DNA of 64,000 nt. Source: Massalongia carnosa (Eukaryota). Location of the stretch: the NCBI GenBank assembly GCA_965645245.1, contig OZ287069.1:806001-870000 (forward strand). The letters run 5' to 3'. The position numbers were made by a program, and so were the translations under genes. This document shows, piece by piece, positions 12,198 through 62,398 of the stretch. Positions within the stretch are counted from its first letter, which is position 1; each line of letters opens with the position of its first letter. The notes beneath the pieces were generated by a model that made no database searches, had not been told where the DNA came from, and was given only the letters and a program-made list of their open reading frames with translations.

Positions 12198-13678
12198 CTC
12201 CTTCCATCTCCCCCCTCCCTCTTGATCAATACATACGTTAATTTAACCAGCGACCGTGTTACTCACCCTCCACTTCTCCATCTATTTCTTCTTTCTTTTG
12301 TTGTCTCTCGACTTTCTCTCTCGCGCGAGAGTCCCTCGCTAGAGCAAGAAAAAAACAAACAAAAGAAAAACATTGAAAATCCGAGAAAAGTGATAAATAT
12401 CAGGAAAATGGAAAAATTCGAAGAAATAGAAATTGCTGGTATTGCTGCTACTGCGACACTTTGCCGCCTCGATCCTCCACCACTCCAATCCTCCAAAAAC
12501 CCCAACTATCATACAACAGGAAACCAGCCAATATAGTGAGATGGGGATATATCTTGGTGGTTTTTTGTCTTCGGTTTTGGTTTGGTTTTGGTCATATGAT
12601 AGTGTTGACGTCGTCGTCGTCGTCGTCGTCTTTGTTGTTGTTGTTAAAGAGAGAGAGAGAAAGAAAGAGGTTGAAAAACGGGAAAGGATGTGAAGGGAAG
12701 GGAGGCGGGTAGGGGACTGAGAGTGAAAAAAAAAAGGGGAGAGAGGAGAGGGAATGGGAAACTGTAGAGGAAGCCGTAAACAGGCAGCTATTGACATGAA
12801 AAGCTAGTTAGTATACAGACAGACATACATACATTGATATATACAAGTAAACCCCCCCCCCCCCCCCCAAAAGGCAGGGGTTTCCTTTTCACCACCCCCA
12901 CAGAAAGGACAAGGAAAGAGAAAGATTCCGTCCGACCGGCTGGTCATAGCTTACTTGACGGGGAATTATACGTAATCATACCAATATCAGGCTCCTCACT
13001 CCATACATCGCTATAAGTATATATATATCTAGCAGATAAATGTGTGTGCAAAGGAAGGGGGGGGGAGGTTTTGTTCTCTCGTGGTGATAGCATTAAGTTG
13101 TGGATGGGGTTGGGGAGGAGAGGGAAGGTAAGGAGTTGGATACTTTGATAGAAGAAGGTTTCTTGATTTTTTTTCTCTGAAAAATAAAAAAAATTAATAT
13201 TTTTGCCGGAGGGGGGGGGGCAATATGAGACAAGATTGATCTGGGCTTCTGGGGATGGATGTGGAGTTCTTTTAAATTGCTGAGATATGTTCAGTGCATG
13301 ATTAATTACATTTGAGACAGTTAAGACCCCAAAATCCGAGACTTATACGAAAGGAAACGCTCAGTTTCATCCGATCTGATCCGTAGAAATTGAAAATCTT
13401 GTTTGGATGCGAGACTCTCTCACCTCCACGCATTTGGAAATCCAGAGCGAAGACCGACTAGTTTGCCCCTACGCAGTTCTCCTTGACGCTCGGAGCAGAC
13501 GATTTCGCCGCAAGAAAAAAAAAAAGCTTGCATCCCGTGCGCCGTGTAAACAGATTTTCCGGGGGGGGGGGGGGGGGTTCGGAAAGCTAGGAGATATTGG
13601 GAGTGAGGACTTTTGTTTAGAGAAATGTATGTTGGTCGGGGAAGTGATATTTACACGATGTCCTGTATGGCGTCGAGG

Positions 13679-14812: not shown

Positions 14813-15640
14813 GCTATCGGGAAGAGATGACGGCGTCAAGGCATAAGCCAGAGAAGTGGGTTCGTCGTCTTAGGATGGACGAGGCTAAATTAAAATATTT
14901 TTTCATGCAGTTTGAAGGGCGGGGGAGAAGGTTAACCGGGTTATCGGGTTTGGGTTTGCATTATGAGGAGTCTTCTGGACCGAGTAGCCTGGACCGAACA
15001 GAGTAGAGTAGTTTGAATCTGTATAGAGCGCTCTATATTCTGTATTCTGTACTCTGTACTCTGTAACTGCCGAGAACGAATCGCTACTAACGAATTCAAA
15101 CGACAGCACGCAGATAACTGGCCACCGCAGGGGGGCAGACGAGTTATTCCATCATGTTTAGCGAAGGGACATGAAAGGGGGAAGGGGGAAGGAGAAGAAA
15201 GTCGACTTGACGACGAAAAGTTGATTGATAGATGGATGGATAGGTTGGCACTCTGTTGGAGAGTCGCTTGATCTGACCTGCGCATGACATGACGCATGCA
15301 TAGTTATATCAATATACACCACTCCCTTTCACCCATATTCCACATTAGCCCATACAGCTTGATAAGAACTCAATGACTAGATAATCGAATAGAGAGCTGA
15401 TTGATTAGTTCATGGAACATCTATACGTACAAGCGTATGTATAAGGCGTCTGGAGTTATTTACAATCAGAAGATTCGAACATCCTCCAGTAAGTCCTTGC
15501 TTCTGGGAGCCATAAAATTAGAATGATGTCTGTTTATAGATGAGATGGTTCTATGTCACGTGAGGCCCCTGAGTCAAAGTAAATTAAGAATCACCCTCTG
15601 AAAATTCTTTCCTCATCCACTTCTTCTCACTCGGCCTCAT

Positions 15641-15779
15641 CCATCTCACTGACTCGTCGTCGACCCCACGTTGTCTCGGTGCCCCTACCTCGCTGTCAGT
15701 GCTTGCTGCTTTTCCCATCTCACTGACTCGTCGTCGACCTCACGTTGTCCTCGGTGCCCCTACCTCGCTGTCGGTGCTT
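15641..15779 (+). repeat. Tandem duplication of a ~64-bp unit in the retroelement 5' leader (15641-15704 and 15715-15779)
   Basis: CCATCTCACTGACTCGTCGTCGAC...CTACCTCGCTGTC[A/G]GTGCTT occurs twice, with 2 substitutions and a 1-nt indel. Confidence 0.95.
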
Positions 15780-15786
15780 TTTCCCA

Positions 15787-16800
15787 ATGACGAACACCCG
15801 TTCCCAAAGCACCCCGATGGACGACATAGTCCCCGACTCCCAGGAGATTGTCGGATTGACGCAGGCCCAGTCCAATCAAATCTTCGCCCTACAAAAGAAG
15901 AAAGCCGAGGCAGAAGCGAAGGCGGCCGAGGCTGAGGCCAGAATTGCCGAGTCCAAGGCATTGGTCGCCGAGAAGGAGGTGGAAAAAATGCAGCTAGAAA
16001 TCGACTGCATGCGCCGAGAATCTGACGCCCGAATAGCGGCCGTCATTCCTGCTGGCAAGCCGAGTCGTGTCGTCGGCGATGACGACGAGGACCTAGGTGA
16101 GATCCCTCTCGAAGTAAGAAGTATAGCACCCCGTTTCGCGGGCCTACCACAGGACGAGATCATCAAGATCTTTTCAAATAAATTCAAAGCCATCAACCTC
16201 TCCCGCCTCCGACACATGCACGGCATGCAATACGAGTCCTACAAGGATCAGGACCGCATCGGCATCGAAGACGGCGCCTTGAGGTTGAGAAAGGCATCCG
16301 GGACCTACAAAGATTTCGGAAAGACAGTTCATGACGTCTGGACCGAGAGCTTCATCAACTACACCTCGATCATGGTCAGTCTTTTCGGGAAATCGAGTCA
16401 ACAGCTTCACGCCACCATGTCGGCATTCCACGGAAAAATCCTCACGCTGGCCAAGGTGTACGAGTGGCAGGAAGCAGTCCTCCCCCTCGCCATCGAAACC
16501 CACACTCACATCATCGCGTCTCAGCCATCCGACGCATCCCAATGGAAAATGCCCGACGAATTCCAAGCTCGATTCTGCACCCCCCTCACAGTCCTACGCC
16601 GTCGCCGCTCACGATCCCCGCCGTCCCGGCGACCGACCCCGAGAGGAGACAGGGCCGATAGGGCCGAGAAGGCAGCGGGGGAAATCTGCGACAAGTACAA
16701 CAGCGGCACCTGCACCTGGCCGTCGTGCTACCGACAGCACAAATGTAAATCGTGCGGCGCGGCTGGGCATGGCCAGAAGACATGCCCAACGAAGAAATAG
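15787..16800 (+). CDS. Gag-like protein of the YR retrotransposon (337 aa)
   Basis: N-terminal coiled coil (KKKAEAEAKAAEAEARIAE), Arg/Ser/Pro-rich tract, C-terminal tandem zinc fingers C-x7-C-x4-C-x3-H and C-x2-C-x4-H-x4-C; first ATG at 15787. Confidence 0.85.
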   Translation: MTNTRSQSTPMDDIVPDSQEIVGLTQAQSNQIFALQKKKAEAEAKAAEAEARIAESKALVAEKEVEKMQLEIDCMRRESDARIAAVIPAGKPSRVVGDDDEDLGEIPLEVRSIAPRFAGLPQDEIIKIFSNKFKAINLSRLRHMHGMQYESYKDQDRIGIEDGALRLRKASGTYKDFGKTVHDVWTESFINYTSIMVSLFGKSSQQLHATMSAFHGKILTLAKVYEWQEAVLPLAIETHTHIIASQPSDASQWKMPDEFQARFCTPLTVLRRRRSRSPPSRRPTPRGDRADRAEKAAGEICDKYNSGTCTWPSCYRQHKCKSCGAAGHGQKTCPTKK

Positions 16801-16845
16801 GGGGTTGGTGCAGGAGGCAGTAGAATAGCTTCAATAGCTGAATTC

Positions 16846-18549
16846 ATGACGTCCCATCCCTGCTTACCTGCACCAATCAGACCAAATACAATCCCTTCGT
16901 TTCAACTCGTAGACGCATCTCGTCAGCGTTTGAAAGACAGCCCATCTCCCCTCGTACCGTCCGCATGGGCAACTCTACTTCAAGAGTATCCGGGCCCCCT
17001 CCGAGTCCATCTGCCCATGATCCTTCGTTTCGGAGTACAAATCGGATACGAAGGCCCCACAGACATCCTTCGGATCGAAAAAAATCTGACATCAGCGAAT
17101 GAGGACCCGGAAACGATCGAGAATAAGCTCCAAGAGGACCTCAGGAAGGGCCGAGTCAGACGAATAGCCGCCCCGAGTCAGCCATTTGTGGCCTCCCCCC
17201 TCGGCTTGGTCCCGAAACATGACGGAGGATGGCGACGCATTCATCATCTGTCTCATCCCAATCAAACATCAGTCAACGACAACATTCCAGAAGAGGCATC
17301 CAAATTACAATACGCCAGACTCGACGACATTATTCAATTGATTCTGTCAGAGGGCAAAGGTGCTGTCATAGTGAAAAGAGACGTCAAAGACGCCTTTCGA
17401 AACGTTCCCGTCGCACCTCATCATCAATGGCTTCTGGGTTTCGGATGGAATGACGAATTCTACACCGAGACATGCCTTTCGTTCGGACTGTCGACGGCCC
17501 CGTTCATCTTCAATCTTTTTGCGGAAGGCTTTCATTGGATTTTGGAATCCTTTCTACAATGGAGATTACATCACTATCTAGACGACTTCGTTGCAATTTT
17601 CCCATCCGAGACATCGTCAGAACGATTGCACCAAGAAACAAAAGCCTACAACATTCTCACCGACATTCTTGGCATCCCGAGAAACGACTCAAAAGACGCC
17701 GAGGGAACGACAGCGACAGTCTTCGGACTCGAGGTCGACACCATCAACAGTCTTATTCGTCTGCCAGCGGACAAGCTGGAAAAAGCGAGAATCATCACTA
17801 CAAAGGCACTAAACGAGACGACAATCAGCCTCGGCGACATGCAGTCAATAGCGGGCTTCCTAAGCTTCTGCGCACAGGCAGTCAAATTGGGCCGAGTCTT
17901 CTTACGATTATTCTGGAATTTTATAGCCTCATTTCCCTCGGGCAGTCATCGTCGGGTCAAAAGAAGAATTCCCACATGGGTCAGACAGGATCTCATCTGG
18001 TGGAACAAACTTCTAGTGGACTTCAACGGTATTGTCTTCTTCGAGACGTCAACACGAGACACGATCAAGGTGCATACGGATGCATGCCTCACGGGTCTCG
18101 GAGGCTATTTTCAACAAGACAACGAGCTCGTGAATCAAAAAAACGCATGTAGGGCCCGAGTCCTAGTCCTCAATCAGGAAGGATCACCGAGCATAAACGT
18201 CCGAGAAGTCGAAGCTATCCTTCTAATCCTTCAGAAATGGGCGCCGACATGGCGACATCGACAGATCCTTGTCTTTACCGACAGCAACACAGCATACACA
18301 GGATTCACGAATCTAACCCTCAAGGGACCGGCCAACGCGCCTCTACGAGAAATACTGTCCATAGCTGCAAAGTGGGACATCGTACTACGTTGTCAATGGA
18401 TCAGTGGCACTTCCAATGGACTAGCAGATGCCCTGTCACGTTTTGATGATGAAAGATTGGCTAACTTTTGCCCTCATTGGCAGAACCCATACAATTCGAT
18501 GAACCTCCCTCCACCTACCTATCCTCCACACCAGGGTCAGCCCTGGTAA
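16846..18549 (+). CDS. Reverse transcriptase + RNase H (DIRS/Ngaro type); open frame extends back to the gag stop
   Basis: SPLGLVPK, DVKDAFR, LSFGLSTAPFIF, YLDDF; RNase H TDAC, INVREVEA, FTDS, NGLADALSR. Confidence 0.95.
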   Translation: MTSHPCLPAPIRPNTIPSFQLVDASRQRLKDSPSPLVPSAWATLLQEYPGPLRVHLPMILRFGVQIGYEGPTDILRIEKNLTSANEDPETIENKLQEDLRKGRVRRIAAPSQPFVASPLGLVPKHDGGWRRIHHLSHPNQTSVNDNIPEEASKLQYARLDDIIQLILSEGKGAVIVKRDVKDAFRNVPVAPHHQWLLGFGWNDEFYTETCLSFGLSTAPFIFNLFAEGFHWILESFLQWRLHHYLDDFVAIFPSETSSERLHQETKAYNILTDILGIPRNDSKDAEGTTATVFGLEVDTINSLIRLPADKLEKARIITTKALNETTISLGDMQSIAGFLSFCAQAVKLGRVFLRLFWNFIASFPSGSHRRVKRRIPTWVRQDLIWWNKLLVDFNGIVFFETSTRDTIKVHTDACLTGLGGYFQQDNELVNQKNACRARVLVLNQEGSPSINVREVEAILLILQKWAPTWRHRQILVFTDSNTAYTGFTNLTLKGPANAPLREILSIAAKWDIVLRCQWISGTSNGLADALSRFDDERLANFCPHWQNPYNSMNLPPPTYPPHQGQPW

Positions 18550-19631
18550 AACGTCTCGTCTGGCACGGACACTCGGCGGACACGAGAAAAGGGTACGGGA
18601 CGGCGATCGACTCATACGAGGCATTCTGCGCGACGACGGGACGCACGTCGTGGCCTGCAACAACCGAGTCCCTCGAGGAATGGCTAGCCGGTCGACTATA
18701 CGGGGGCGGCACACCCAAGCAGGGAAAGATAAAACCAGAGACGGCAGCGAGCTACCTCGCCGGCCTCAGATCATACCATGTAGACCGAGGATACGGCCTC
18801 ACCCCATTCGAGGGGCCGAGACTTCAATTGATGCTGAAAGGGGGAAAAAGGATCTTTTCTCAGACAAAAAGAAGACGCCTACCCATTTCAAAAGAATTAC
18901 TGACAAAAATCACCAGTATTCCCGCTCATTCGGCCGAAGACCTCAACATCGACGCGACATTCAAAGTTGCATGGGCAGGGTTCCTCAGACTCGGGGAAAT
19001 CACCTACACTGTCGCTGATCGTAAGAAGACATCTTTTCAGAGATTGAAACCTACACGAGGTGACATCTCATTCGCCGAGAACGATCAATACGCGACATTA
19101 CGTCTCAAAAGAAGCAAAACAGACACAAATCACTCAGGAGTTCAGATAGTGCTGGCAGCGACCAATGAGAGCACTTGCCCCGTGACAGCACTACGGCGTC
19201 TTTTCAGAAATGATCCTCAGCCATCTACATCCCCGCTTTTTCGTCTCGGCACCGCATTCACCAGAGCCTCCGTCATAGCATCCCTGAAAAAGAGACTGAT
19301 AGCCGTCGGCATCAACGACTCGGCATACTCGGGACACAGCTTCAGAAAAGGAGCAGCACAACACGCCGCCGACCACGGGATGCTGGATGAGAGTATTCAG
19401 AGACTCGGAAGATGGTCATCAAACGCGTTTCAGCTATACTTTCAGACGTCCCAGGCCTCACTATTCAATTTGAACCTCAGTTTTCAAAAAGGCATCCCTC
19501 TAGCAGTCCCACGTGCTGTCGTCGCCGAGACGAATCCTACAAACTCCTACCCCTACTCAATTGGGCATTCCATTGGGCGTACAGGTCAACCAGGGCATCG
19601 ATCCGGAGCGCCGCCGGGCACCTCCATCTAG
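18468..19631 (+). CDS. Tyrosine recombinase (Cre/lambda-integrase fold) of the retroelement; no N-terminal ATG
   Basis: Core-binding domain (TRKGYGTAIDSYEAFC, TAASYLAGLRSYH) and complete catalytic set FLRLGE, KRSKTD, GHSFRKG, LGRW, FQLY; overlaps the RT ORF by 82 nt in the -1 frame. Confidence 0.95.
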   Translation: MPSLAEPIQFDEPPSTYLSSTPGSALVKRLVWHGHSADTRKGYGTAIDSYEAFCATTGRTSWPATTESLEEWLAGRLYGGGTPKQGKIKPETAASYLAGLRSYHVDRGYGLTPFEGPRLQLMLKGGKRIFSQTKRRRLPISKELLTKITSIPAHSAEDLNIDATFKVAWAGFLRLGEITYTVADRKKTSFQRLKPTRGDISFAENDQYATLRLKRSKTDTNHSGVQIVLAATNESTCPVTALRRLFRNDPQPSTSPLFRLGTAFTRASVIASLKKRLIAVGINDSAYSGHSFRKGAAQHAADHGMLDESIQRLGRWSSNAFQLYFQTSQASLFNLNLSFQKGIPLAVPRAVVAETNPTNSYPYSIGHSIGRTGQPGHRSGAPPGTSI

Positions 19632-19887
19632 ATCATCGCCGTCGGGCACTGCCGTCGGGCATCATCTATCGGATCGTTGAGCGTCAGCAGACGCCTCGGG
19701 CCTAGAAGATGAGGTTCTCACCTCAGCACCGACCCCGAGTCACGTGCCTAGGCCTGCCCGGGCTGACCTGTGTCGTTCCCATGCCCAATCAAATTCAAGC
19801 ATTCAAATCAATTCATCCAATTAAAAGCCCCCCCAGCGCAAGCGAAGGTAACGGCACCGATAAGGGTCATAGAAATATATTCTCTTC

Positions 19888-22022
19888 GCGAAGGTACCCC
19901 CCCCTCGCACTAGTAATTAGCTGCTTTGCATTAGTAATCAGAACATCAAAATTTTGTTTACCTTTTTAACCCCAAGCATCACCATTCTCAACCTCACGAA
20001 CTGATTTAATTGCTCATCAATTACTGTGATTATCATCTCATATTTAATTGCAAAACATGGGACTAAATGAAGAAGAGCTTCCTAGTGTTTCAGATAAATC
20101 TCCTATCTTAGCAAAGCAGCACAAAATCAATAGCAAGCGCACCGTCGAAAGCATTTTGGCCAATATTCCACCTCCCTCCCCCAATTACACTTCCGTGTCA
20201 GTTGATGACAGACCCCCTAATCACTGGCTAAAGGCCTTGCTGATTCACCTCTTGAATTGTTTCAACTGTTCATTTCAGCTCAGCACTGTCGCACCATCGC
20301 GTATCATACCAATAACAAGGCACACGACTATATAAAGCAGGAGAAGGAGAATAATCATCGCGCATGGAATGACGTTATTAGGCCTGAGATCGAGGTGTTT
20401 CTAGGCATTCTTTTGTTTATGGTCTTGTATCATGCGCCTTCGGAGAGCGACTATTGGAATACATGTTCTGATAAGCCTGTTTTCGTGTCTATTCAGGAGG
20501 CTATGTCTCTGAATCGATTTGAAAATATCAAACGATTCTTGAAAATAAACAACGGACGTACAGAGCCTTCAGACATGGGCAAAGGACCTGATTGGTGGAA
20601 GAAATTTGGAGCCGCTTGCTACTGATTTTCAAACGGCTTCGTTGAAATATTATCAACCAGGAAGCATTGTTTCAGTTGATGAGCAATTGATTAAGTTCAA
20701 AGGTCGATCACGTCATACTTTGCAAATAGCTTCCAAGCATGCCTGCAAAGGGTTTAAAATATATAGTCTTTGTCAGAATAATTATTTGATATCGTTCCTA
20801 TTTGCCTCCAGAATTACCAAAATCAGTCAATTAAAAACCGCCAGACAGCTAGGATTTCTGATCAAACATGGCCTTTCTAATAGTGCTTTGGTGGTAACTC
20901 AGCTCTGTCAAACACTTCCCGAACCACTGAACTATGTTCTTTTTTGCGACAACTTCTTTACCAGCACAAAGCTATTCAAAGCTCTTCGATCAATAGGAAT
21001 TGCCGCCTGTGGAACAGCCAAGAAAGACTGGATTTCCCTCGGAGTTGCTAGCCCTGAGAGATGTGGCCACAAAAGCGAAACACTGGGGCCTTCGTACCAG
21101 TACGACTGTCGATGATGAAGTGCTTTGTTTAGGCTGGGTGGATAACAATACTGTTCAGCTTATGACTACGTTCCATGACCCTCGAGAGCTTGATCGTTCA
21201 TACTATTTACATCCTTTCAAAGACATGGAATTCCAGAAGGCTCGGTTGAACCGATTATATCCTATTATCCATCAATTCATGCACACACCACTTTGCTGCC
21301 TGATCAAACGCCTTTATGGCCTTTAGGATTACCGGTTCCTGTTCCCATCAGAGAATACAATCTTCACATGGGAGGTTCAGATGAAAATGCTCAGCAAAGA
21401 GCAACTTATTCATATGAACGCCGAAGTGATCGTTATTGGTGCCTTTGTTTATTTTTTGGTTAGATGCTGCTGCGTTAAATGCATACAAGCTCTATCTGTT
21501 GAACAACTCCGAAACAACGGAAAAATTCCTCGATCGTGCTGACTTTATTCGTCATCTTTCTCTTCATCTTCTGAGAAATCCGCTGGTCAAAGACGACGAT
21601 ATGAGCCTCAAACAAGCGTTCAAACCACAACTGATTGTTTTGTCAGTCCTCCTGAGCATCATTACATTCATTTGAACAAAAAACAACGATGTGTGCATTG
21701 CAATGTCAATAAAATAAGACCTTCCAAGCGAAAGAGGGAACCACTGACTGAAAGAGACGCTAATGGAAACAAAAGAAAGCGACGAGGTGCTCAGACAAAG
21801 TAGGCATGTGGAGGATGTCATCCGATTAAGCCTTGCTGTAAAAATCAGGACTGCTGGCAAGCAATTCATATGAATTGAAAGGGGTGAATGGAATATATGT
21901 AAATAGTAATTGATTGGACACTCTGGCAAATAGGGGTAGCAACATCTAGACTTGATTGGTCAATATTTAAGTTTCGGGAGGTGTAGACCATTACAGTTAG
22001 TGCGAGGGGGTGGTGCCTTCGC
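19888..22022 (+). mobile_element. Decayed piggyBac-like DNA transposon with 25-bp terminal inverted repeats
   Basis: GCGAAGGTACCCCCCCCTCGCACTA (19888-19912) matches the reverse complement of 21998-22022 at 23/25; encloses transposase fragments. Confidence 0.8.
20057..21878 (+). pseudogene. piggyBac (DDE_Tnp_1_7-like) transposase pseudogene with multiple frameshifts and stops
   Basis: EIEVFLGILLFM, MSLNRFENIKRFL, VSVDEQLIKFKGRS, LFCDNFFTS, ACGTA, WVDNNTV, YNLHMGGSD and C-terminal CxxC...CxxC..C..C motifs spread over at least 4 frames. Confidence 0.88.
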
Positions 22023-28852: not shown

Positions 28853-30612
28853 TCACTCATCCGACCCCTTCTTTCCACCCACAAACCCCCAGACCACCCG
28901 CGCCTCCTCCCCGCTCAGCAAAGCCTCCTCCACCATCTGCTCCACCACCTCTGTTACCCCATCCCCTTCCCGCCGCATCAACACTTGCAGGCGCTTGCTG
29001 TCACCTCTTAGTCCGCCTACGACCGCCTCCTTGACTCTCGCCTCCCCCGCCTCTTCGGCGGTGGCTTCACGCCCTGCCAGCTCCACCGCGTGGCTGTAAT
29101 GCCCCGCGGCGTTTTTGAGCAGCGTAACGGCGCAATCGACCGCGAGGTCATAAAACGCAGGCGCGTCGGCGAGCCTTCGGCGCAGAAGCTCGCAGTCCCC
29201 GCGGCGAAGGTCAATCCGTTGGAGGTGCTGCACGCGCGGGAGTTGGGACGCCGCGGTCAGGCCGTCGAGGGCGGCGCTGAGGTGGATCCAGCGCAGAGCG
29301 CTGAGGGAATGCTGCGGGTGGGTTTGGAGAAGGGTGGGAAGTGCTGCGCACACGCTGTCATGGAAGGCTAGATCGGCCTCAGCACGGTCGCAAAGTGCTT
29401 GTGGGTCGCTAGCGAGGGAGGGGGCTTGAGTGAAGGCGGCGCCGAGGTCATAATCGTAGGTTTGGAGATCGAGCTGGCCGGCGCGGAAGGCGGCGTTAGA
29501 GAAAGCGCTGGCGAAGTTGGCGTTGGTGAGCGCGATCTCGTGGTGTTGAGTGGGGTTGGCGGGGTTGCTATAGGCGGACAGTTTGTCGCGGATAGCGGAG
29601 CGGTGGTATTCTTCTATCCAGCCGAGCCCGGGGGTGCCTTGGGAGCCCAACACAGTGCAGAGGGCAGTTAGGGTCCCCAATTGCGCGATGGCAGTGTCGA
29701 CAAGCGTATCTTTGCTCACAAGCTCAACAACAGTGGCCCATCTTTCACCATCCGATGGATCGGACGGGCTGCTAGGGACCATGTCGATATCGTCATTCTG
29801 GTCCGGGGTTGCAGGCTCTACCGGCCGGCTTGCTTGCTTTTCAGACTCCGTGAATTGGAATTCTTGAACCTCAAGACAACGCTGGAACAACTCTAGAGCC
29901 TCCTGAAGCATTCGCACGGCAGCCTTGCGAGTGGCATCTGTGGCAGCTCTGCCCTCGCTAGTGGCCTCGGCGAGACTTGTCAGGGCCTGGGCAGTGTTAC
30001 TGCCATAATTCAACAGGCGATACAGGATGATTTGATCCTACAGAAACTCACAATAGGAGATCTGCATTGTCTTGATCAATATCCAAAGCTGTCTTATGTG
30101 AATCAATTGCAACTTGTAGCAAATCGATTGAGGAGGCTGATAGGTGAGCAAGCAGCCGGGGCTGTTGGGCCACTTCGTATTGCAGGCGGGCCCTAGGCTG
30201 TTTTTCAGCGACAGTGAGGGACTTCTACTTGACAGTATCTACTTGTTGTATGCGAGGTCGAATGAACGCGGGAACTTCTGCAACCCGGCGTCATAGTTTT
30301 CTATGGCACGAAGGAAAAATCTGGCTGATTTGGCAGCATCGCCAGCCCGCCATTTCCCTCCAGCTTCTTCTAGGTCAACCCCAGCTGATAACAAAGGTCA
30401 GCGCAGCTCTACGATCATGATTTGCAAAACGCCACGGCTGTTGAGACCTGCAAGATATTCATTTGCCGTATCGGGGCCCTGATGTGAGCTGTCAGTTCCT
30501 CTGGCCTATCAATGGCCTTCACCAGCGTTGAGAGGAAGTTCCCACTAACTTTGAGTTTGGCGGCGGTCTTTTTGGTCCTGGGGAGCTGCTGGAGCTGCTT
30601 CTTATTTGGCAT
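28853..30612 (-). CDS. Conserved hypothetical helical-repeat (TPR-like) protein, multi-exon
   Basis: 386-aa terminal ORF plus upstream short exons (MPNKKQL..., GVDLEEAGGKWRAGDAAK, SFDLAYN, ARLQYE...NADLLF/NTAQ); family not firmly recognised. Confidence 0.7.
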
Positions 30613-50800: not shown

Positions 50801-52949
50801 TCAAGTCTCGCTTGTCTTGCCGTCAAACTTCCTCTCCGCATTTGCTAGTTTCTTTTTGACGTCTTTTAGCTCTTCTTGGAGCGACTTGATGTATTCGATT
50901 GCCAGCTCTACCGTGGTGGCTTTGCTATTGCTTTGCTGCGCCGCAGTCCCAGCCATTATAATGTTCGTACCGCCCGGGGTTGAGCTGCCCGAGCTTCCAT
51001 CCTTGCCACAAGATCCGTTGAACCCGTTGCTCGTTGACGCTGGAGGCGGGAGAAGAGAAGCTATCTCCTGGAGAGCCGTATTTATGCGATTTCTTCGTCC
51101 TTGTTCGGCAATCTTGTGTGAAGTGCGTTTTGAGGTTAAGTTGGTAGAAAGCGCTTCCGGATAGGATACGCCAGGAAGATGGGTGCCTTCGAGAATATTT
51201 TGGTAGTTGGACTTGGATGCAAGGAGCAGCGCCGATGTTTCTGCATTTACATTTACTGATATACCTATTAGCAAGAGACTGGGTAGCAAGAGGGTCAACC
51301 GTTCTTACCTCCTTCTGGAAGAAGAGGCTTGATGCTTGGGGACATCTTTGGACGTAGAGCTGGGCTGACGTGCACAGAGCTTGTGCTACTCCTTTTCTTA
51401 TTTTCGCGGCCTGAAGTCTTTGGTTCTGCACGCTTGGCGCCTAACGGGCTCTTGGGTGAGACCAACCCGGATAACGACGGACTGCTGAAATAAGCTTTTG
51501 TTATAGTTGCGGGTGCGCTGGAAGCTGTAGAGACATCTTTTTGAACAGACATGATCGGTGTTTGGTCGAATTTCTCGTTTGACGTATCCAGCGGCGTCAA
51601 TCTTGGGTTTGTCGCAACATCTGCTGGCTCTGGTAGGGTGCTGTCTTCCATATCGTGCTGCGCCTCCCCGTTACCGACCGAAGCATGCTCATTTAGGGTA
51701 GAGGACGTAATTTGAATGCTGCCACCACTACCCGCTTGTTTACGAATTTTCATTAGCGAAGCTGGCGTCGCAGGCTCATCAATCATGGCCAAAAGCGGTG
51801 CTGACTGAGACCCAGCTTGCTTGGGATTGAGGTAGGGTGACCTGCTTGAAGAGCACGATCTAGGCGTTGCAGGTGGTGGCATCAATATCTCAGATAACGG
51901 TTCGGGTGAGATCGAGCCCGCCTCGGAACTATCCTGAGTGTAGGGCAATCCGAGCTTGTTACCAGAAGCCAGTACCTTGTTACCTGCCTTTTTGGGCCTT
52001 TGGGCATCTTCTATCATTCCCAGAATCTCCTTTGGAGGAATGGATGAGCTAAGCGACTGTTTTCGTTTGCTTTGAGGCTTCATCGAAGGCGATTGCTTCA
52101 CCATACGACCCGAGCTCTTTGCTGTAGAGGTCGTTTTCCTCCTCGATTTACGCAATTTGGCTGAATTTAGGGAAGCTAGGGGCGCGCTGAAATCGATATT
52201 CATGTCAACTGGAGAAGTAGTATCGGAAGTATCCGAGTTGCGTACAGCCCCATACACGGAATTTTGGTTCGCATGTCTTTGGGCCTCTAACGCCGGCGAG
52301 GTTAGAGGACTGAAGTATTCTCCGGGTACAGGATACTCAGGATACTGGAATTGAGTATCCAACGGCGTGACTGCTGGAGATACTAGGGGTGTAAATATCA
52401 TCTTGTAAAGATATCAGCTCATATATTGTCAGAGCTTTGTGATTATGATCTGACCTGGTCTTTCTGATTCCGCCCAAATCGTTCAAACACAGCTTGTGAC
52501 TGATGCTCCCCCGAGGATCGATAGTATCTTGTATGCTCGCCGTGCAGCTCGATGCTATTCGGGGTAGGCGGGATGATATTTTGACTTCGATAATGTGCGC
52601 TGTGAGTATGGGATTGCTGCTGCTGAAGTGGATGGAAAAGTTCGGCCCGCATATTCATTTCATGAAATGACTCGGTCGAGCCTTGAAAGCCGCCCATGAA
52701 TCGCATGGGGTCATTCTGGTTCATTTCTTCGGGCATGTGCTCTTCATCCAGCCCCAGCACTTCCCCTCTGTTTCCCATGGGTATATCCATCGCGCTGCCG
52801 GCTTCTTGCCGCAAGTCCCCTCCATCAGGCATAGGACCTTCAAAAGAAGGGAATGTAAGCTGCAAATCCCCGAACTCTAGAAAATTGGCAAACTCCTCTT
52901 CGGGTCCAGACACCATGGGCGACCACGGAGAGGCAGAGATCTGGTTCAT
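50801..52949 (-). CDS. Phosphate-acquisition bHLH transcription factor (Pho4/NUC-1/PalcA-like), 3 exons
   Basis: PPTPNSIELH, FTPLVSPAVTPL, YFSPLTSPAL, PATPASLM, LLASKSNYQNILEG, KRTSHKIAEQGRRNRINTAL, SKATTVELAIEYI. Confidence 0.92.
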
Positions 52950-55009: not shown

Positions 55010-57035
55010 ATGTTCACATTCGCTGTCCTTGTCTCCCTTTCAGCAGTACTCTCTCTCTGTTCCTGGCCTGTGGTAACGGCCGAAACATGTACCACGTACT
55101 TGGTATTGGAGTCGGACTTCCAATCTCCTCCAACGAGCACTTTCTACAGCTCTGTCATTACCTCAACTGGTACTGTTCCTTGCGGGCCATGTGAGCTTGA
55201 TGTGCACGTTTTCCTTCCCTATGGTTTTGCTCCGGTGAGTGTTCGAGAGTCTCTGTCATGGAGCTTCATCGTGCTAATCATTTATTGGGAGCAGCAATTC
55301 CGGACCACTGTTACGGCTGCCATTGGAACAAGCACAAGCTACGTGTGTTCGGTAGTTTCTAGCAGCACACGCATTGTGAACATCTTTGAAACTGATTCCC
55401 TGCTACCGCAAACCAAGCAAACACAAGTGGACCGATCAAGGCCTACCGTTCTTGAGCCCTCTTATGAGGTTTTAACGAAGCTCACTCCACACTCAAGAGG
55501 CTCTGCTGGATCCAAGCCAATATTTTCAGGCACTGAGGTAGCTACCAGTAAACCTACAAGCCAGCAAATTTATCACCTAGGCTCAAACAAGCAATCCAAA
55601 ATAAGGTCTTTACAATGGAAACATTTAGATATAGCAACAAATCATAGCTCGCAAGCCACTGTAAGCCCTTACCTGTGCGTCTTGATGATCTCGCTGATTG
55701 TTATTTCAGGCTACGGGTTTCAATCCAACCATAGCTAGTCATCCAGCACTGAGCTCTTTCATTAAACCTCACAGTACGTTTTCAGGAGGTCTGGAATCTC
55801 GAACGCGAGGGAACTTAGAGTCCATTACAAGCGCTGCAGCAGTGATAGCCAGTTGCACGATTATTGATCCACAATTACCGGCTCCGCAGCCTTGTGCGGT
55901 TAGTCCTGGAACTAATATCACCATATGCCCTCGATGTCCGATCACACCACTAGACCTTGGTCGATGTCCTTTCCTTTGCATGCTCTCGGGTTTTCTCGAA
56001 TGCTCTTTGACTGATCTCACTGGTCAGAGTGATCCGGCACGTTTCACTAAGGCAACTTGTCAGAGATGTCTGCCGGCCTGCAATACATCAGTATTGGCCA
56101 CAACGACCTCGCAACTGTTTCCATCATCCAGCCTCCCCACGTTTCCTACAACGCTTTCATCACACATCCAGACAGGGGAACCAACGCCTACCTGTGTGAT
56201 CGTTGATTCGAGTGCACACGATGATCCTTGTCGAACTACCTTCGACGACGACCTCCTATGTAGCGCCTGCCCAACCGGTTTTGCGACTGAAACCATCCTT
56301 TGCCCATTTCTCTGTCAAATATCTTTCAAAGAGGGGCTCTCTGCTCTCGAGTGCTCTCAGAATGATCTTAGTGGACAAAATCAGTTGTCCGTCGGCGGTC
56401 CCCCCGCAACTTGTCAGCAGTGCCTACCACCTTGTATCGATGTATTCTTTCCACCTGTGGCTGCTCCCAAGCCTCCACCTAGCACTTCAACAATCAATTC
56501 CACTTGCGTTTCCACCGCGCGAAACGCAATAGACACACCTGCTGTGGAAAACCCTAATGGAGGCATTTCTCGACTTACCTGTGGGATTACAACTGCCACC
56601 GTGGCTGAATGCCCTTTTATCTGCTCTACTATTCCGGCCGTTGGACTTCAGTCCTGTGCCACGGAAGACTTAACCAGCGCTCTTGGGAAAGCAAAATTCA
56701 TGAGTTGTATGCAATGCTTACCACCATGCAACCCGCCCGATCCCCCCGAGCCAAACCCTACGTGCACCTCTATCACTCCTTCTATGACATCCAGCCCATT
56801 CGTTAGATCTAATATTTCGGGGACTTTATACAAGGAATCTTGCGGTATCACTGGTCTCGAAGTTGCCGCTTGCCCATTTCTCTGCACGCAAGGGCTTGGT
56901 GAGGTGCTTCTCCGATGTACAGAGAATGACGAGAGCGGAACGGTGTTTGATGGTTCCCTCCAGTCTTGTCAGCCATGCTTAATGCCTTGTATTAGGGGTG
57001 ATGCTATTTTGAATGAAAGGTACCTAGAACAATGA
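55010..57035 (+). CDS. Secreted Cys-rich repeat protein (~638 aa); exons 55010-55234, 55295-55660, 55710-57035
   Basis: Signal peptide; two phase-0 introns with GTGAGT/GTAAGC donors, CTAAT/CTGAT branch points and CAG acceptors keep the frame; four CPF[LI]C...CxxCLxxC repeats. Confidence 0.75.
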
Positions 57036-57388: not shown

Positions 57389-58741
57389 CAGTCCCGTGCC
57401 AAAAGTCTGCGGCCCAACCCGTGATTTTCGTGATTTCGCGTTTTCAACTCATCAACCCCCCATCTTCCACCTCATCATTTCACCATGCTTCGTGCTTCTT
57501 TGACCCCCATAAGTGGTAATCGGCCTCGTAACACTAAATTGACGCCATATCAATATGGTATGATTGTTGGGGCCCAGGCGTTGGGGCCCAGGCGTTGGGG
57601 CACACACCGACCGAGATTGGGAAAGACTCTTAATTTCACTAAATCGATCGTGCAGAGTACCATTCAGAAGCACTCAATTCGCAACGACGGCGTGTCTAAA
57701 TCACGTTCTGGACGGCCTGAAGTGCTGTCAGAACGCGATCGACGTTATATCATCAAGCATGCACGAATCAATCCACGAATCACTTATGCACAAATCAAAC
57801 TAGAAGTGGGGCTCGGCTGCAGTCGTACGACCATTTATCGGGCACTCAAACTGTATGGTTTAACCAACTGGGTGGCTAAAAAACGACCTTTATTGACGCC
57901 TGAGGTGGCCAAGAAACGATTGGATTGGTGCTTGCTGCGGCGTGAGTGGACTTTTGAGCAGTGGTCAAGAGTTATATGGTCAGATGAGTGCTCGGTGGAA
58001 AAGGGGTCAGGAAAACAGCGTCAGTGGGTGTTCAGATTGCCGAAAGAAAAATGGAATAAAGAGATGATACAACCTGTCCCCAAAGGCAAAGGAGTCAGTG
58101 TCATGGTTTGGGCAGCTTTTTGGGGAGATGACAGGTCAGATCTTTACAAATTGGCTCGTGATTTTGCTGCGAAGAAGATGGGGTACTCGGCGAACTCATA
58201 TCTGGAATTATTGAACGATAATCTGCTTGGAATTTGGCAACCGGGCCTCATTTTCATGCAGGATAACGCACCTATACATAAGGCTAAAAAGGTGATGGAA
58301 TGGTTCAATGAGAACGGCATAGAGGTCATCGATTGGCCCCCATATTCACCTGATTTAAATCCTATCGAGCACGTTTGGTATGTGCTCAAAAAGCTCGTCT
58401 ATCAAGTCAACCCGAAAATAGATTTGGTGATCGGCAGTGATGAAACTGTTCGTGAGTTACTTTGGAAAGCGTTAGAAGAAGCCTGGACGTTGATAGATGT
58501 GAAAATGATGAGGAGGTTAATAGAGAGCATGAATAGGAGGATAAAAGCGTGTATAGCGTCGGAAGGATGGTATACTAAATATTAAAAATCAATTTTTGGG
58601 GGAATTCTTGTTTAGTATGTATGTAATCATTATGTAAAATTCCAAGACATTTCAGCAATCATGACGTGGTTGATTGTTGATTGAATAGAATGATTGAAAT
58701 GTTGGTGGGGTGCGGGGCCGCAGACTTTTGGCCTAGTACTG
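57389..58741 (+). mobile_element. Tc1/mariner DNA transposon, 1353 bp, ~27-bp imperfect TIRs, TA target duplication
   Basis: Left TA|CAGTCCCGTGCCAAAAGTCTGCGGCCC; right end reverse-complemented TA|CAGTACTAGGCCAAAAGTCTGCGGCCC. Confidence 0.95.
57485..58585 (+). CDS. Tc1-type DD34E transposase (366 aa)
   Basis: RSGRP linker, KKRPLL, WSDE, MVWAAF, FMQDNAPIH, WPPYSPDLNPIE (34 residues between D and E), GWYTKY. Confidence 0.95.
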   Translation: MLRASLTPISGNRPRNTKLTPYQYGMIVGAQALGPRRWGTHRPRLGKTLNFTKSIVQSTIQKHSIRNDGVSKSRSGRPEVLSERDRRYIIKHARINPRITYAQIKLEVGLGCSRTTIYRALKLYGLTNWVAKKRPLLTPEVAKKRLDWCLLRREWTFEQWSRVIWSDECSVEKGSGKQRQWVFRLPKEKWNKEMIQPVPKGKGVSVMVWAAFWGDDRSDLYKLARDFAAKKMGYSANSYLELLNDNLLGIWQPGLIFMQDNAPIHKAKKVMEWFNENGIEVIDWPPYSPDLNPIEHVWYVLKKLVYQVNPKIDLVIGSDETVRELLWKALEEAWTLIDVKMMRRLIESMNRRIKACIASEGWYTKY

Positions 58742-58941: not shown

Positions 58942-61900
58942 CTAAACCCGCTCCTCGGCAAAATCCACCACCTCGCAGTCATCTTCGAAAAACTCTTCTT
59001 CCTCCGCTCCTGCATCATCCCTCATGGCGGGTCCCTTTTTGACCCCGCGTTTGCGCCTCGTGGTCACGACGACCTGCCGCCCTTCCTCATCGTTGCCTTC
59101 TACGCTAATGAAGTTCTCCATCTGAACTGCTGGTACGTCGGTGGCGATGGCGCCGTCTTCGTCCCGCGTACTGGCCGAGAAGGAGCCAACGCCAATTTTA
59201 GATATGGGGATAGGTTTGCCAAAGGCCCAGGGAACGGGATCCGAAGGGTGATGATTGGATTCTGATAGGGCGCTGAGTTGGTTGTAGATGTAAAATGTGA
59301 TGCGGCGGTCGGTATGGAAGGGTTGATAGGGAGCATTGGTTTCGATCTCAGCGCAGGAAAGGGGGTGAGCGGTATTTTTGGGGGGCTTCGATGCCGGGTC
59401 TATGATGTATGGTAGCCAGTAGCTCTTTGGTGATGCCGAGAGCTTCTGAATTGCTGGATCAATGGCTGAGCTGTGGTTTGGAACCATCCTTTCCGAGGGT
59501 TGCGAGGCGCTTGATAGGCTGAACTCGATAGGTTTGCTGCCCAAGACAGATGGACGTCGCTTTGAAGCTTTTTGGTTCATGCTCTGTCGGATGCTATGGA
59601 TCCGGAGAAGCCCTCCTCCGGTCACGGCTATGAGTCCTTGATCCCTCCCCCCAAGCCACCTGATACAGCCAGGTGCCACTGCAGAAGATGATCCAGGCAA
59701 AGCAAGCCGATTCTCTCCCATGTGACGGATCGTGTTGACAGTACCGGTAGCCGCACCGACTGACTTGTTGAAGCCTGCTGCGACAGCTTTACCGCTTTTG
59801 GCGCCTGCCCCAGCGCTGAAAGCTAGTCCACCCAAACCGGCCAAAGCGTTGCTGATGTTGGGAGGCCGACCACGTACTGCTGCCAATAGGGGCTGGGTCT
59901 TGACTGTCACTAGATCTAGAGCAGCGCTCAGCGCTGTGCTCGTTGGTAATGGTGGTACGACATTTTCAAAATCATTACTCGAGGGGCCTGGATTACTCGG
60001 GAGGCTGACGGAGCGTTTCGTTCGCCGCGGCGGTGGCCACTGAAATACAGAAGGTGGTAGATCAAATATATGGACGGTACCTCTTTCTGTGAGAATGGCA
60101 AACCTTTCTCCTCTTGGCTCCGTCCAAACTACGTCGATAATCTTAGCGACGGTCATACGGGTAAACCGGGCAATTTCGCGCACGCTTCCTCTTTTCTCAG
60201 ACATTGGATTATCTTTCCCTGTGGCCGTCACGATTTCTCCGTGTATCATCCGCAGTAAGTCCCAGACATGTTGCACGTCACCCTTCGCGCTCGCGGTCAA
60301 CAAACTTAAACCGTTTGGAGAAAACGACACCAAGCTGCACCCATACGGTAAGGCGAACGTGGCAATCGGTTGTAATGCTACAGAAGGTTTGAGATTTTGA
60401 GCTATCGAAAGCTTCTCCAAATCTAGGATCGCTACCAAAGCTGGTTGATTGCCCGGACGGTGTGATAAATCATCATGGGCATGAGTTGACGGAAATACCT
60501 GGTGTGGATTTGGCTCCCATCGAGAATGATTTGCAGGGTAGGGTTGAGGAGTATGCTGGTCAGGCGCTTTCGTCCAGTAATTATTCCAGGCTTGTTTCCC
60601 TTGATCGCCAACCCATCGTGCCCCCTTGATAAACTCCTGCGTTACATCTCTGGCTACTTTGCTGAGCACACTTTCCCCATCCGGAGTTTCCAGATTACAT
60701 GTGATTGGAGGTTCTGCAGGAGACGTGTGAGAAACGAGTCCAGGAGGCTTTGGAGTGCGCACAAAATCGACAGTTCCATGTAAAGTAGTTTGCGCCGAGG
60801 ACATAGGTGGCACAGTAGCCAGCCATCGCGGGCTTAGACTGAAAGTTGCTGCATCTGATTGCTTGAATCTTGTGGTTGCGTGATGTGAAATATCTGCCTC
60901 CGAGGAACTTGAGGAGATCGAGAGACTTCTTGCCTTCCTGGGAGATATTCGCGTCCAGACCTTCCCGATGCATTTGAAATGACTTGCTGGATCATCCAGT
61001 CTGCCGCTTTGAGCTTCAAAGATGTGCACTTCTCCACTAGTACCCGAGCCAACAACCAGAAACTTCCCTTTGGCTTGTAGACTGATATTCCCATTAGGCA
61101 AACACTCCACAGGACCCGAATCCCCTCGAGGAATATCCACATCAAACTTTGGACTTCTAAACAGAGTAGTAACATGGCGACCCTTTCTCAAGGAGTACAC
61201 CTCGACCGTAGTCTGATAGGAAACGCTCCGTTTTGGAGCCCCGGCATCGGCATTGTTGAGAGCCTGTAGCATGGAGCTCGAAGGATCGAATGCCGCATCG
61301 TCAGAATGACTCGTTCCAGGTCTCGAAGTTTTCTCTGGCTCATCGGAGCTATGCGGGCCAAGGATTATTAATGCGACCAAAGGTCGTAACGATCGAAGAT
61401 CATCCGGCCTTGAAGTGGATGGTAATATCTTTGCACCGTAGACGGACCCCCGAAGCTCCTTTAGGCGGCCAATCAGATCGATCTTCTTTTTGTCCATGCG
61501 ATAAATGTGAAGTTCGTGTTCCGAACCAACCAAAAGCACATTATCAGCGCTGCTGGAACCCTCATCCCCAGCCCCTGCCAGGCTGTCAAAGACGCAACAG
61601 AACCTGTCCCCTGCGCTGCTGTCGCTCCGTGCCTGGTACACGCCAAAGTCAATGTCTGGAGCCCCGTAGAAATGAGCTTGCGTTTGGTGAGGGAGAGGTA
61701 ACGACTGGGGCGGGTGGGAATGCATTGATATGGGCCTTCCTCGGCTTGGCGACGAGCCTAAATAGTCCCCGAAGCTCTGATATCCGTTTTTTCGACGCAC
61801 CGACTGGCAATATGCAGCTGACGGCGAAGTTGGAGGAGATGCATTATTGAATCCACCTCGCAGGTCATCATAAGGCTGGAGAGGTTCCGGGGGTGACCCC

Positions 61901-62398
61901 GCTATACTCGGTCCGTTGCTGCGATTTCCCGGAGGACTTCTGCCGAATGGAATATTCTTCGCCCACTCTGTGGTAGATTCGGCTGAAGCGGTCCGATGCT
62001 CTGGAGGCGGAAAAGCGCCTAAAGCTTTGAGCAAGGGCGAAGAGATGTTGTTCGGTGGTTCTGGGGCTGGGGAAGTTGAAGCATGAATTTGTGACAGAAT
62101 GGAAGGAGAAGACGTTCTAAAGGGAATAATCTCGGTCAGCACCATATCATTGCGTCCCTCACAATTATTGCACTATAGTTGCCTAGATATTGATCGAGGC
62201 GACTCACAGCTCTTTGGGCAATATCTTGGATACCCTTTCTTTGATCTCATTTTCCGCTGCGGGCTCGTGCCTTCTCCGCGATCTCGTCGACGATTTGTTA
62301 CCAGCCGATCGCCTCTTTGGGTACTCTTCCTGCAAGTATGGACTGTAATCATTCGCTGGGTGGGGATGTTCCAAAGGTTGGTCCGACGGTGAGGGCAT
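58942..62398 (-). CDS. BCAS3-like beta-propeller protein, 2 exons (intron 62117-62207)
   Basis: VSFSPNGLSLLTASAKGDVQHVWDL, FTRMTVAKIIDVVW, TERGTVHIFDL, LSCAEIETNAPYQPFHTDRR; the intron joins 62398-62208 in frame. Confidence 0.8.

Follow-up and report, generated by a model that had tools for sequence, protein, structure and literature searches.

A probable stop-codon readthrough junction between gag and reverse transcriptase in a Ngaro-like retrotransposon of a filamentous ascomycete

Introduction

We analysed a 64,000-nucleotide (nt) stretch of Massalongia carnosa DNA (GenBank assembly GCA_965645245.1, contig OZ287069.1, forward-strand positions 806,001 to 870,000; hereafter the window, in whose numbering all positions are given), which carries a Ngaro-like tyrosine-recombinase (YR) retrotransposon whose gag and reverse transcriptase (RT)-RNase H frames are separated by a single in-frame UAG codon. 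Comparing this junction with those of near-identical copies and of diverged relatives, we find that Gag-RT is likely made by programmed UAG readthrough in an intact element, which would yield Gag together with a minor Gag-RT/RNase H fusion. An initial annotation of the window had proposed that RT is a readthrough fusion produced at a controlled Gag:RT ratio, and this proposal is supported comparatively by a gag-RT frame shared among relatives, leaky stop contexts, a spacer that evolves as coding sequence, and missing internal ATG codons.

Readthrough at the gag-pol junction is a textbook mechanism in gammaretroviruses and is known or has been proposed for some long terminal repeat (LTR) retrotransposons. 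To our knowledge, control of protein ratios has hardly been addressed in YR retrotransposons (DIRS, Ngaro, PAT). A literature search, with Goodwin & Poulter 2004 and Poulter & Butler 2015 outside its coverage, returned no report of readthrough or natural splicing in YR elements of the DIRS and Ngaro groups, in agreement with the initial annotation, which knew of no earlier description for fungal YR elements. No statement on either process in YR elements occurs in the parts covered of PMC3783388, PMC3266345, PMC9210276, PMC8547959, PMC5009743 and PMC7192593; the part covered of the recoding review among these (PMC5009743) mentions neither DIRS, Ngaro nor tyrosine recombinase, and that of Muszewska et al. 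2013 (PMC3783388) does not mention recoding at the gag-pol junction.

Results

A single UAG interrupts one continuous gag-RT frame

The proposed readthrough codon, UAG at 16798..16800 on the plus strand, lies in the context AAG AAA UAG GGG GUU (positions 16792-16820 read AAG AAA TAG GGG GTT GGT GCA GGA GGC AG) and is documented in the sequence itself, in copies from three sequencing runs, and in relatives. The stop-to-stop frames 15727-16800 and 16801-18549 are one and the same frame, of which the TAG is the sole interruption, and translation through it from the ATG at 15787 gives 920 positions, with the stop as position 338. The layout described in the initial annotation, in which gag ends in this TAG, its frame continues into RT with no second stop between them, and a 920-codon Gag-RT-RNaseH frame runs from 15787, is therefore what the read-through translation returns.

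Directly downstream, the minimum free energy (MFE) structure computed with ViennaRNA contains a long stem. Its 5’ arm (16803..16820, plus strand) begins 2 nt after the stop, and its 3’ arm (16860..16878, plus strand) lies on the codons P-C-L-P-A-P-I at the start of conserved RT sequence; positions 16803-16820 pair with 16860-16865 and 16867-16878 in 18 base pairs (bp), including two G-U pairs and leaving A16866 bulged, exactly as the stem had been drawn before folding. The MFE of the segment 16798-16885 is -34.5 kcal/mol, compared with a mean of -21.7 (sd 3.2) for 200 dinucleotide shuffles, none of which was as stable (0/200; z -4.05). Two small hairpins cap the stem, and the ATG at 16846, the nominal RT start that had been placed in the loop, indeed sits within one of them, in the apical part of the structure. 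Rfam returned no matches at E<=1 over 15500-19900.

Near-identical copies retain the stop

Parts of the element were present in 13 sequencing runs from 11 studies, each containing at least a tenth of the sampled words. We compared contigs of four of these runs with the window; those of X1, X8 and X9, which bear three organism labels, span the junction, and that of X10 does not. The three spanning copies are more than 99% identical to the window across the junction, with the TAG and both stem arms unchanged, although at this level of identity three unchanged stop bases carry little weight alone. The initial annotation had noted that a sense codon in sister copies would mark the stop as a private mutation; the TAG is retained in all three. 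Elsewhere in the element, the 15 differences listed between the run contigs and the window comprise 9 synonymous, 5 non-synonymous and 1 nonsense change, a pattern that fits a young family under purifying selection.

In one contig of X1, G>T at window position 17101 turns an RT Glu codon into TAG, so that RT is broken in that copy or allele. The occurrence of copies more than 99% identical under several organism labels may reflect close relatives, or movement of the element between hosts.

Among public proteins, P0003 (a 90%-identity cluster of 59 sequences) corresponds to the RT frame beginning at ATG 16846 and P0243 (a cluster of 54) to the YR frame; a fused form more than 90% identical was not seen among public proteins of 506-1610 residues.

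Most diverged relatives share the frame and the interrupting stop

Relatives were collected by scanning JGI (Joint Genome Institute) metagenome contigs with an alignment of 34 RT proteins, and the best 80 of 327 stretches, with RT 33-52% identical, were retained (loci designated by L numbers). For each locus, a script followed the RT frame upstream as far as the first stop and examined what the sequence beyond it contained. Loci were regarded as assessable if 450 nt or more of upstream sequence was present and the RT frame ran to 380 codons or more, which gave 43 loci that collapsed at >=85% identity into 40 groups; in-frame gag was called by script where at least 130 open codons abut a single stop in the RT frame.

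By this measure, 31 of the 40 groups have in-frame gag before one stop, against a chance expectation of 1/3 (p 1.3e-8), and most of the 31 are backed by one or both of a tblastn match to gag in that frame and a terminal zinc knuckle. Removing by eye one locus (L035) with a 406-codon, knuckle-bearing gag in another frame leaves 30/40 groups in frame (p 8.5e-8). An uninterrupted gag-RT frame, or a sense codon at the junction, was found in none of the 40 groups. The two features to which the initial annotation had tied its proposal in homologues, conservation of the frame and persistence of a stop rather than a sense codon, are thus both present, the former behind a single stop in 30/40 groups and the latter in the sense that 0/40 are open.

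For junction statistics we combined the window with the 30 in-frame loci, giving 31 junctions. The stop is TGA in 16, TAG in 12 and TAA in 3 of these, with at least 8 changes of stop identity on a quick maximum-likelihood RT tree (supports from the Shimodaira-Hasegawa-like approximate likelihood-ratio test, SH-aLRT). Well-supported sisters carry different stops (L005 TAG and L006 TGA; L003 TGA and L004 TAG; L014 TAA and L017 TAG), as do L046 (TAA) and L056 (TGA), which are at least 85% identical around the junction. The base following the stop is C at 23 junctions and G at 6, against 2 with T and none with A. Of 25 stops at the ends of these loci's RT frames, by comparison, 15 are followed by A, 4 each by G and T, and 2 by C (Fisher p 5e-7 for C and 2e-7 for A). 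Likewise, AA precedes the stop in 12/31 junctions compared with 1/25 RT-end stops (p 0.003). Extended hexamer contexts include UAG-CAA-UUA in L005, CAA-CCA in L021 and L058, UGA-CUA in six loci and UGA-CGG in L003; these hexamers are the classic leaky readthrough contexts of plant viruses, alphaviruses and yeast. By these comparisons the stop drifts in identity while its context stays of the leaky type, and it behaves as a selected feature.

The sequence between stop and RT points in the same direction. Between 12 and 519 nt separate the stop from the RT match, depending on the locus, and the spacer sequence varies widely. Over the first 40 post-stop codons of L033, L040 and L049, differences at the first, second and third codon positions number 15, 5 and 25; 13, 4 and 30; and 15, 3 and 21, with about half of the changed codons being synonymous, and the TAG-CAA subfamily has a milder third-position excess after the stop. 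Judged by this substitution pattern, the post-stop peptide evolves as coding sequence within subfamilies. No ATG occurs between the stop and 20 codons into conserved RT sequence in 17/30 relatives, so that the ATG at 16846 is not a conserved start.

A stem downstream of the stop recurs in near relatives

In related loci with a comparable hairpin, the 5’ arm has its start 2-14 nt past the stop, and the 3’ arm falls on the C-x-P-A-P codons just before the RPNT motif. Such hairpins were found in L016 (-44.2 kcal/mol, z -4.27), L022 (z -3.07) and L004 (z -3.56), and L007, L003 and L006 share the layout; overall, 6-7 of 12 near relatives have a stem in which post-stop bases pair with the C-x-P-A-P codons, with differing arm sequences and registers. 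In 5 of the 6 tested loci with G after the stop (the window, L016, L022, L004 and L007, not L024), the stem accompanies that context.

Column-wise counting showed no covariation here, and we relied instead on tests that compare cognate with non-cognate arms and rank the true partner within its own locus. In the cognate test, we computed the energy of the duplex formed by the first 36 nt past the stop and a 42-nt stretch around the C-x-P-A-P codons, pairing each arm with its own partner or with those of other loci. Cognate arms paired better in 12 loci (means -23.5 vs -18.2, permutation p 8e-5), and in 10 loci, with the window alone kept from its trio with L016 and L022, the p value was 0.004. 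The within-locus ranking, which removes the effect of composition, compared each 5’ arm with all other 42-nt windows of its own locus (about 270). The true partner ranked first in the window (of 272 control windows), L016 and L022, with rank p values of 0.0075 in L006, 0.011 in L007, 0.036 in L004 and 0.11 in L003, and a Fisher combined p of 1.6e-4 for 10 loci. More broadly, folding of the 100 nt that follow the stop is stronger than in control windows, with a mean z of -0.85 over 36 junctions vs -0.22 (n=249, p 0.0075).

In the column-wise count over the window, L016 and L022, 83% of cells were paired and 8 of the 18 pairs were invariant; this invariant core is GGUGCAGG/CCUGCACC, the 3’ half of which encodes P-A-P. 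Taken with the rank and cognate tests, these comparisons indicate a real stem that recurs with different arms and registers, for which a stimulatory role is plausible.

Counter-evidence and alternative explanations

Several observations weigh against readthrough, or against the part that we assign to the stem. First, 10 of the 40 groups are without the in-frame layout: in L019, L023, L035 and L038 gag lies in another frame, and L018, L020, L050, L055, L060 and L072 are decayed or ambiguous. Second, three predicted proteins 41-45% identical to the element (P0004, P0005 and P0006) continue through the junction with no stop. Third, the true partner of the 5’ arm was not special in L001, L024, L025, L026 and L058, so that 5/12 near relatives are without the stem, and the UGA-CUA clade shows no structure in the 100 nt after the stop; the stem is accordingly not required family-wide. 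Fourth, no pairs were changed on both sides in the column-wise comparison of the window, L016 and L022, with no excess of covariation over shuffles, and since the 3’ arm overlaps conserved P-A-P codons, conservation of the stem is partly protein-driven. Fifth, the spacer between stop and helix is 2 nt here, and in classic readthrough cases the stop-to-structure spacer is about 8 nt. Finally, in Tca2 of Candida albicans an in-frame UGA followed by a predicted pseudoknot gave no readthrough in a yeast (S. cerevisiae) reporter, according to the part of PMC2194720 covered.

On the stem, then, the expectation of the initial annotation is borne out in part, in that the nearest relatives also have it, built from other arm sequences, and 5/12 near relatives do not; the compensatory changes that the annotation had suggested seeking were not found, with 0 double-sided changes in the three closest sequences. 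None of its refuting conditions, as examined on the 80 related loci, overturned the readthrough proposal.

Two of the off-frame loci, L035 and L038, belong together in a small subfamily whose RT frame is preceded by CAT TAG, and the four as a whole may represent decayed copies, assembly indels, or a lineage that has switched to frameshifting.

The proteins that run through the junction raise the possibility of a dead copy in which a nonsense mutation created the TAG, with the complementarity of the stem due to chance or to protein constraint, as the position of its 8-bp core on the conserved P-A-P codons might also suggest. In all three of these proteins the catalytic YLDD box reads YLDE or YLDN, and each is shortened; for these reasons, judged from protein rather than DNA, we read them as decayed copies. 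A dead copy would moreover have to be reconciled with three open ORFs (open reading frames), with retention of the TAG in copies from three runs, with RT and YR proteins whose 90%-identity clusters, of 59 and 54 sequences, start past the stop, with a single stop common to 30/40 divergent groups and an open junction in 0/40, and with the failure of any of 200 shuffles to fold as well as the stem. We consider this explanation extremely improbable.

Alternatively, RT could be made independently of gag, through an internal promoter, internal ribosome entry, a non-AUG start near 16846, or another non-canonical route as in Tca2. The ATG at 16846, 15 codons past the stop, is available for this in the window copy, and Tca2 offers a precedent in which an in-frame stop with a 3’ structure is not accompanied by junction-driven readthrough; its pol is made from gag-pol RNA, and a promoter was found at the junction (PMC2194720, in the part covered). 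Yet that ATG is absent in 17/30 relatives, independent expression would need neither the gag-RT frame shared by 30/40 groups nor a coding-type post-stop peptide, and the C or G that follows the stop in 29/31 junctions would go unexplained. We regard this route as unlikely, and favour readthrough at the UAG.

A third possibility accepts readthrough and assigns the stem to packaging, dimerisation, priming or RNA stability, with leakiness arising from the linear context only. Many relatives with CAA or CUA contexts lack significant structure, the helix starts only 2 nt past the stop, and the nearest trio contains no double-sided changes, all of which would suit such a role. Against it, the helix occurs in the loci with the weaker G context (5/6 tested: the window, L016, L022, L004 and L007, not L024), and, although arm sequences differ, the 5’ arm invariably starts at a distance of 2-14 nt from the stop. 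We give this division of labour a low, though appreciable, probability. The occurrence of readthrough, its efficiency and its stimulation by the stem are inferred.

Candidate splicing for the recombinase

The third frame of the element, encoding YR, lies in the -1 frame relative to RT in 40/43 loci, with an overlap of 22-1180 nt and mostly with no early ATG. We rejected -1 frameshifting as a likely route to YR: canonical slippery heptamers (X XXY YYZ) were absent from the 85-nt overlap of the window and from 12 of 14 overlaps inspected. Conservation shifts from the RT frame (C-P-H-W-Q) to the YR frame just past a conserved TGG CAG.

At this point the window contains a candidate 3’ splice site (18459..18483, plus strand), consisting of GCTAAC, 19 nt and CAG| at the start of the YR ORF, with exon 2 running from 18484. 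An acceptor-like arrangement of RCTRAY, 13-19 mostly pyrimidine bases and YAG occurs at the YR ORF start in 22/25 loci, in both clades and always in one phase, and looks like a fungal branch point followed by a 3’ splice site. In the RT frame, the acceptor codons are fixed as Ala GCT in 19/19 loci (background 24%) and Gln CAG in 23/23 (background 46%), while neighbouring third positions are free, with the caveat that the T-R-A of the acceptor motif doubles as the stop with which the YR ORF opens in the -1 frame. Within gag, G|GTGAGA (16096..16102, plus strand) forms a candidate 5’ splice site, which would split the Gly104 codon after its first base, and is matched by the same motif in relatives: G|GTGAGA or G|GTATGA stands at the homologous gag site in 18/26 loci, in a phase that would join gag to the YR frame and at the border between the variable acidic N-terminus of gag and its conserved core. 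The candidate intron in the window would span 16097-18483 (2387 nt), and the predicted spliced product would comprise Gag residues 1-103, Glu, and then PIQFDEPPS...

A search for proteins of this kind took in the best 150 of the 10,408 representatives that match the YR exon. P0405, P0471, P0484 and P0444 have N-terminal extensions of 67-132 residues and a YR match starting within the first 28 exon residues. The P0471 extension aligns to window Gag 52-108 (35% identity, E 0.002), followed by YR (48% identity, E 2e-51); P0405 has a coiled-coil and an acidic N-terminus ending in ...DEDDE-G, and its homology to the L006 YR frame begins exactly at the predicted junction codon. P0484 and P0444 are less clear as gag-YR fusions than these two, and all four may be RNA assemblies or intron-less DNA copies. 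The N-termini of the fusion proteins gave no tblastn matches in related loci, because those regions diverge fast, and among the best 120 of 275 closer YR matches no Gag-YR fusions occurred. A further candidate, P0262, was rejected, its N-terminus being not convincingly gag (E 0.13) and partly aligning to YR frames, and many YR records that begin with M at the ORF start were read as TTG or GTG starts picked by prokaryote-style gene callers, not as real starts.

On these motifs and proteins, we give a spliced Gag(N)-YR message for the recombinase roughly even chances. Splicing would be compatible with readthrough, as unspliced RNA would still serve Gag and Gag-RT. The combined scheme, in which one transcript yields three products (Gag by termination, Gag-RT/RNase H by readthrough and YR from a spliced subgenomic RNA), may hold, and we place it slightly on the doubtful side of even.

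The same donor bears on the junction itself, where the stop might be removed by splicing, or RT be joined to the gag N-terminus through the recombinase donor. The donor-like site at 16096-16102 is conserved, and the TAG of the window would in principle fit a YAG acceptor. Half of the junction stops (16/31), however, are TGA, which cannot end an intron, and in the window no GT lies between zinc knuckle and stop and no pyrimidine tract precedes the stop; the shared frame and the bias in the base after the stop would also go unexplained. From the TGA stops and the lack of a GT, in particular, splicing out of the stop is unlikely, and we hold it to be highly improbable beside translation through it.

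The element and its surroundings

The whole retrotransposon copy extends over about 4.3 kb (15541..19857, plus strand), with approximate boundaries taken from the extent of matching contigs of other runs: matches begin at 15536-15541 in X1, X8 and X9, X8 diverges 5’ of 15541, and the X1 match stops at 19857. It is the single copy within the 64-kb window by blastn self-comparison. Its 5’ leader contains a tandem repeat (15641..15779, plus strand) of two 64-65-nt copies at 74-75-nt spacing, with 97% identity in the repeat search (families D1 and D2) and 95% in a blastn self-match; this duplication ends 8 nt before the gag ATG, and the X9 copy is without 1 + 17 nt there.

The gag ORF (15787..16797, plus strand; 337 codons), delineated by translation and tblastn, encodes a coiled-coil N-terminus, an acidic tract, a conserved core, and a CCCH finger followed by a CCHC knuckle (16687-16785). 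As read from the translation, the C-terminus carries a C-x7-C-x4-C-x3-H finger directly before a C-x2-C-x4-H-x4-C knuckle. Tblastn with window Gag matched the gag region of 40+ related loci. Gag matched no Pfam family at E<=0.01 except weakly at its knuckle, the only part that Pfam sees (zf-CCHC_6, E 0.0024). The RT-RNase H frame (16801..18549, plus strand; 582 codons and TAA) contains an RT domain at about 17209-17643 and an RNase H domain at about 18058-18294, corresponding to Pfam matches to RVT_1 (E 1.7e-12, residues 137-281) and RT_RNaseH (E 1.6e-4, residues 420-498). The YR ORF (18465..19631, plus strand; 388 codons), assigned by Pfam and motifs, lies in the -1 frame with the 85-nt overlap noted above and has its first ATG at codon 122. 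Its Pfam matches are weak, to Phage_integrase (E 0.0054) and Phage_int_SAM_1 (E 0.025), both under the Pfam cut-offs; the motifs HxxR and GRW and a C-terminal Tyr are read in its translation, and 275 YR relatives were found.

The gene order, gag, RT/RNase H (RH) and YR on one strand, is shared by related loci. No aspartic protease, DDE integrase or Dam-like methyltransferase was detected by Pfam, which reported only RVT_1 and RT_RNaseH in the 582-codon frame, and the YR ORF starts directly after RNase H, with no space for an additional domain. Absence of a Dam-like methyltransferase separates Ngaro from DIRS1 and PAT. Split direct repeats of the form A1...B1-A2-B2 were not found by blastn self-comparison, and a local alignment of 15521-15800 with 19561-19900 gave a 13-16-nt match (score 17). 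As no such repeats were found and the ends are only approximate, we call the element Ngaro-like, by gene content, rather than proven Ngaro. With this proviso, its sequence identifies it as an intact, recently active Ngaro-like YR retrotransposon of a filamentous ascomycete.

The host assignment follows from an Hsp90 fragment in the window with 88-94% identity to Pezizomycotina proteins vs 67-72% to those of Basidiomycota, which places the host among the filamentous ascomycetes (Pezizomycotina). Neighbouring the element are frames for a SUN-family protein, NTF2, a septin and Hsp90. Elsewhere the window holds a Tc1/mariner-type DNA transposon, represented by a 383-codon frame with HTH_Tnp_Tc3_2 and DDE_3 (57434-58585, plus strand), as well as long frames that match no Pfam family at E<=0.001: 58942-62172 (minus strand, 1076 codons), 28853-30037 (minus, 394 codons), 51295-52413 (minus, 372 codons) and 55698-57035 (plus, 445 codons). 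An inverted repeat lies 5’ of the element, with a C17 run within 12849-12872 and a G17 run within 13556-13579, 683 nt apart.

Discussion

The comparisons above lead us to the following model for expression of the element. The full-length RNA would be translated from the gag AUG at 15787, with most ribosomes terminating at the UAG at 16798 and releasing Gag. A minority would decode the UAG with a near-cognate tRNA and continue elongation in the same frame, giving a Gag-RT-RNase H fusion of about 920 residues; a low RT:Gag ratio would be fixed in this way, and RT would be carried into Gag assemblies. In the window copy, leakiness may be provided by the purine-rich UAG-G context together with the 18-bp stem, 2 nt downstream and capped by small hairpins. 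With the UAG in the A site, the outer pairs of this stem would necessarily be melted, and the remaining helix, positioned at the mRNA entrance, might favour miscoding over release-factor binding.

The Moloney murine leukaemia virus signal consists of UAG-G and a 3’ pseudoknot. As in gag-pol stop-codon readthrough of gammaretroviruses (treated in the part covered of PMC4178896), gag and pol here lie in one frame with a lone UAG between them, G and purine-rich sequence come next, a stable 3’ structure is present downstream, and a minor Gag-Pol fusion is the expected product. The present element differs in that its structure is a long bulged stem-loop, rather than an established pseudoknot, with a stop-to-helix distance of 2 nt in place of about 8 nt, and in that it encodes a tyrosine recombinase with no protease or DDE integrase.

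Plant virus and alphavirus signals, defined in RNA viruses, take the forms UAG-CAR-YYA, or UGA-CGG or UGA-CUA with a long 3’ stem. The same hexamers occur in relatives of the element (L005, L021, L058 and the six UGA-CUA loci), and in L003 UGA-CGG is followed by a stem. Unlike those viral signals, the sites described here stand at the gag-pol junction of a DNA-integrating retroelement, and the window copy itself has a G-type context. Tca2, a Ty1/copia retroelement, resembles the present case in its fungal host, in the in-frame stop that parts gag from pol, and in the 3’ structure; being an LTR element of another RT lineage that has an integrase, it serves as a caution rather than a model.

With Ngaro elements the present one shares the order gag, RT/RH, YR and the lack of methyltransferase, protease and DDE integrase, and it differs from them in that the A1-B1-A2-B2 terminal repeats were not found, its ends being approximate. 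Muszewska et al. 2013 noted that the Ngaro YR frame is shifted relative to RT and, in the part of the paper covered, described a lone remnant Ngaro in Ascomycota (PMC3783388); in contrast to that remnant, the element described here is intact, multi-copy, and resident in a Pezizomycotina genome.

The candidate splice sites for YR also have a parallel. Retroviral env and Drosophila copia use a spliced subgenomic mRNA, with an early donor and an acceptor just before the downstream gene. The candidate sites here, an early donor and an acceptor preceding YR, would likewise yield a second mRNA, with the difference that the donor lies inside gag and the product would be a Gag(N)-recombinase fusion. 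If confirmed, a spliced YR message would explain the long-noted shifted YR frame that lacks a start codon, and, if the three-product scheme is true, both enzymes would be tethered to Gag sequence.

For annotation, the rule that follows is to join the RT frame of such elements to gag across the stop, and not to start it at the next ATG, as P0003 does at 16846. If readthrough is indeed the route to RT, a whole fungal lineage of YR elements would rely on recoding, and one homologous codon would have explored all three classic kinds of signal: those set by hexamers, those of the UGA-C type, and G after the stop together with a stem. The lineage would then provide a natural series for how readthrough signals replace one another.

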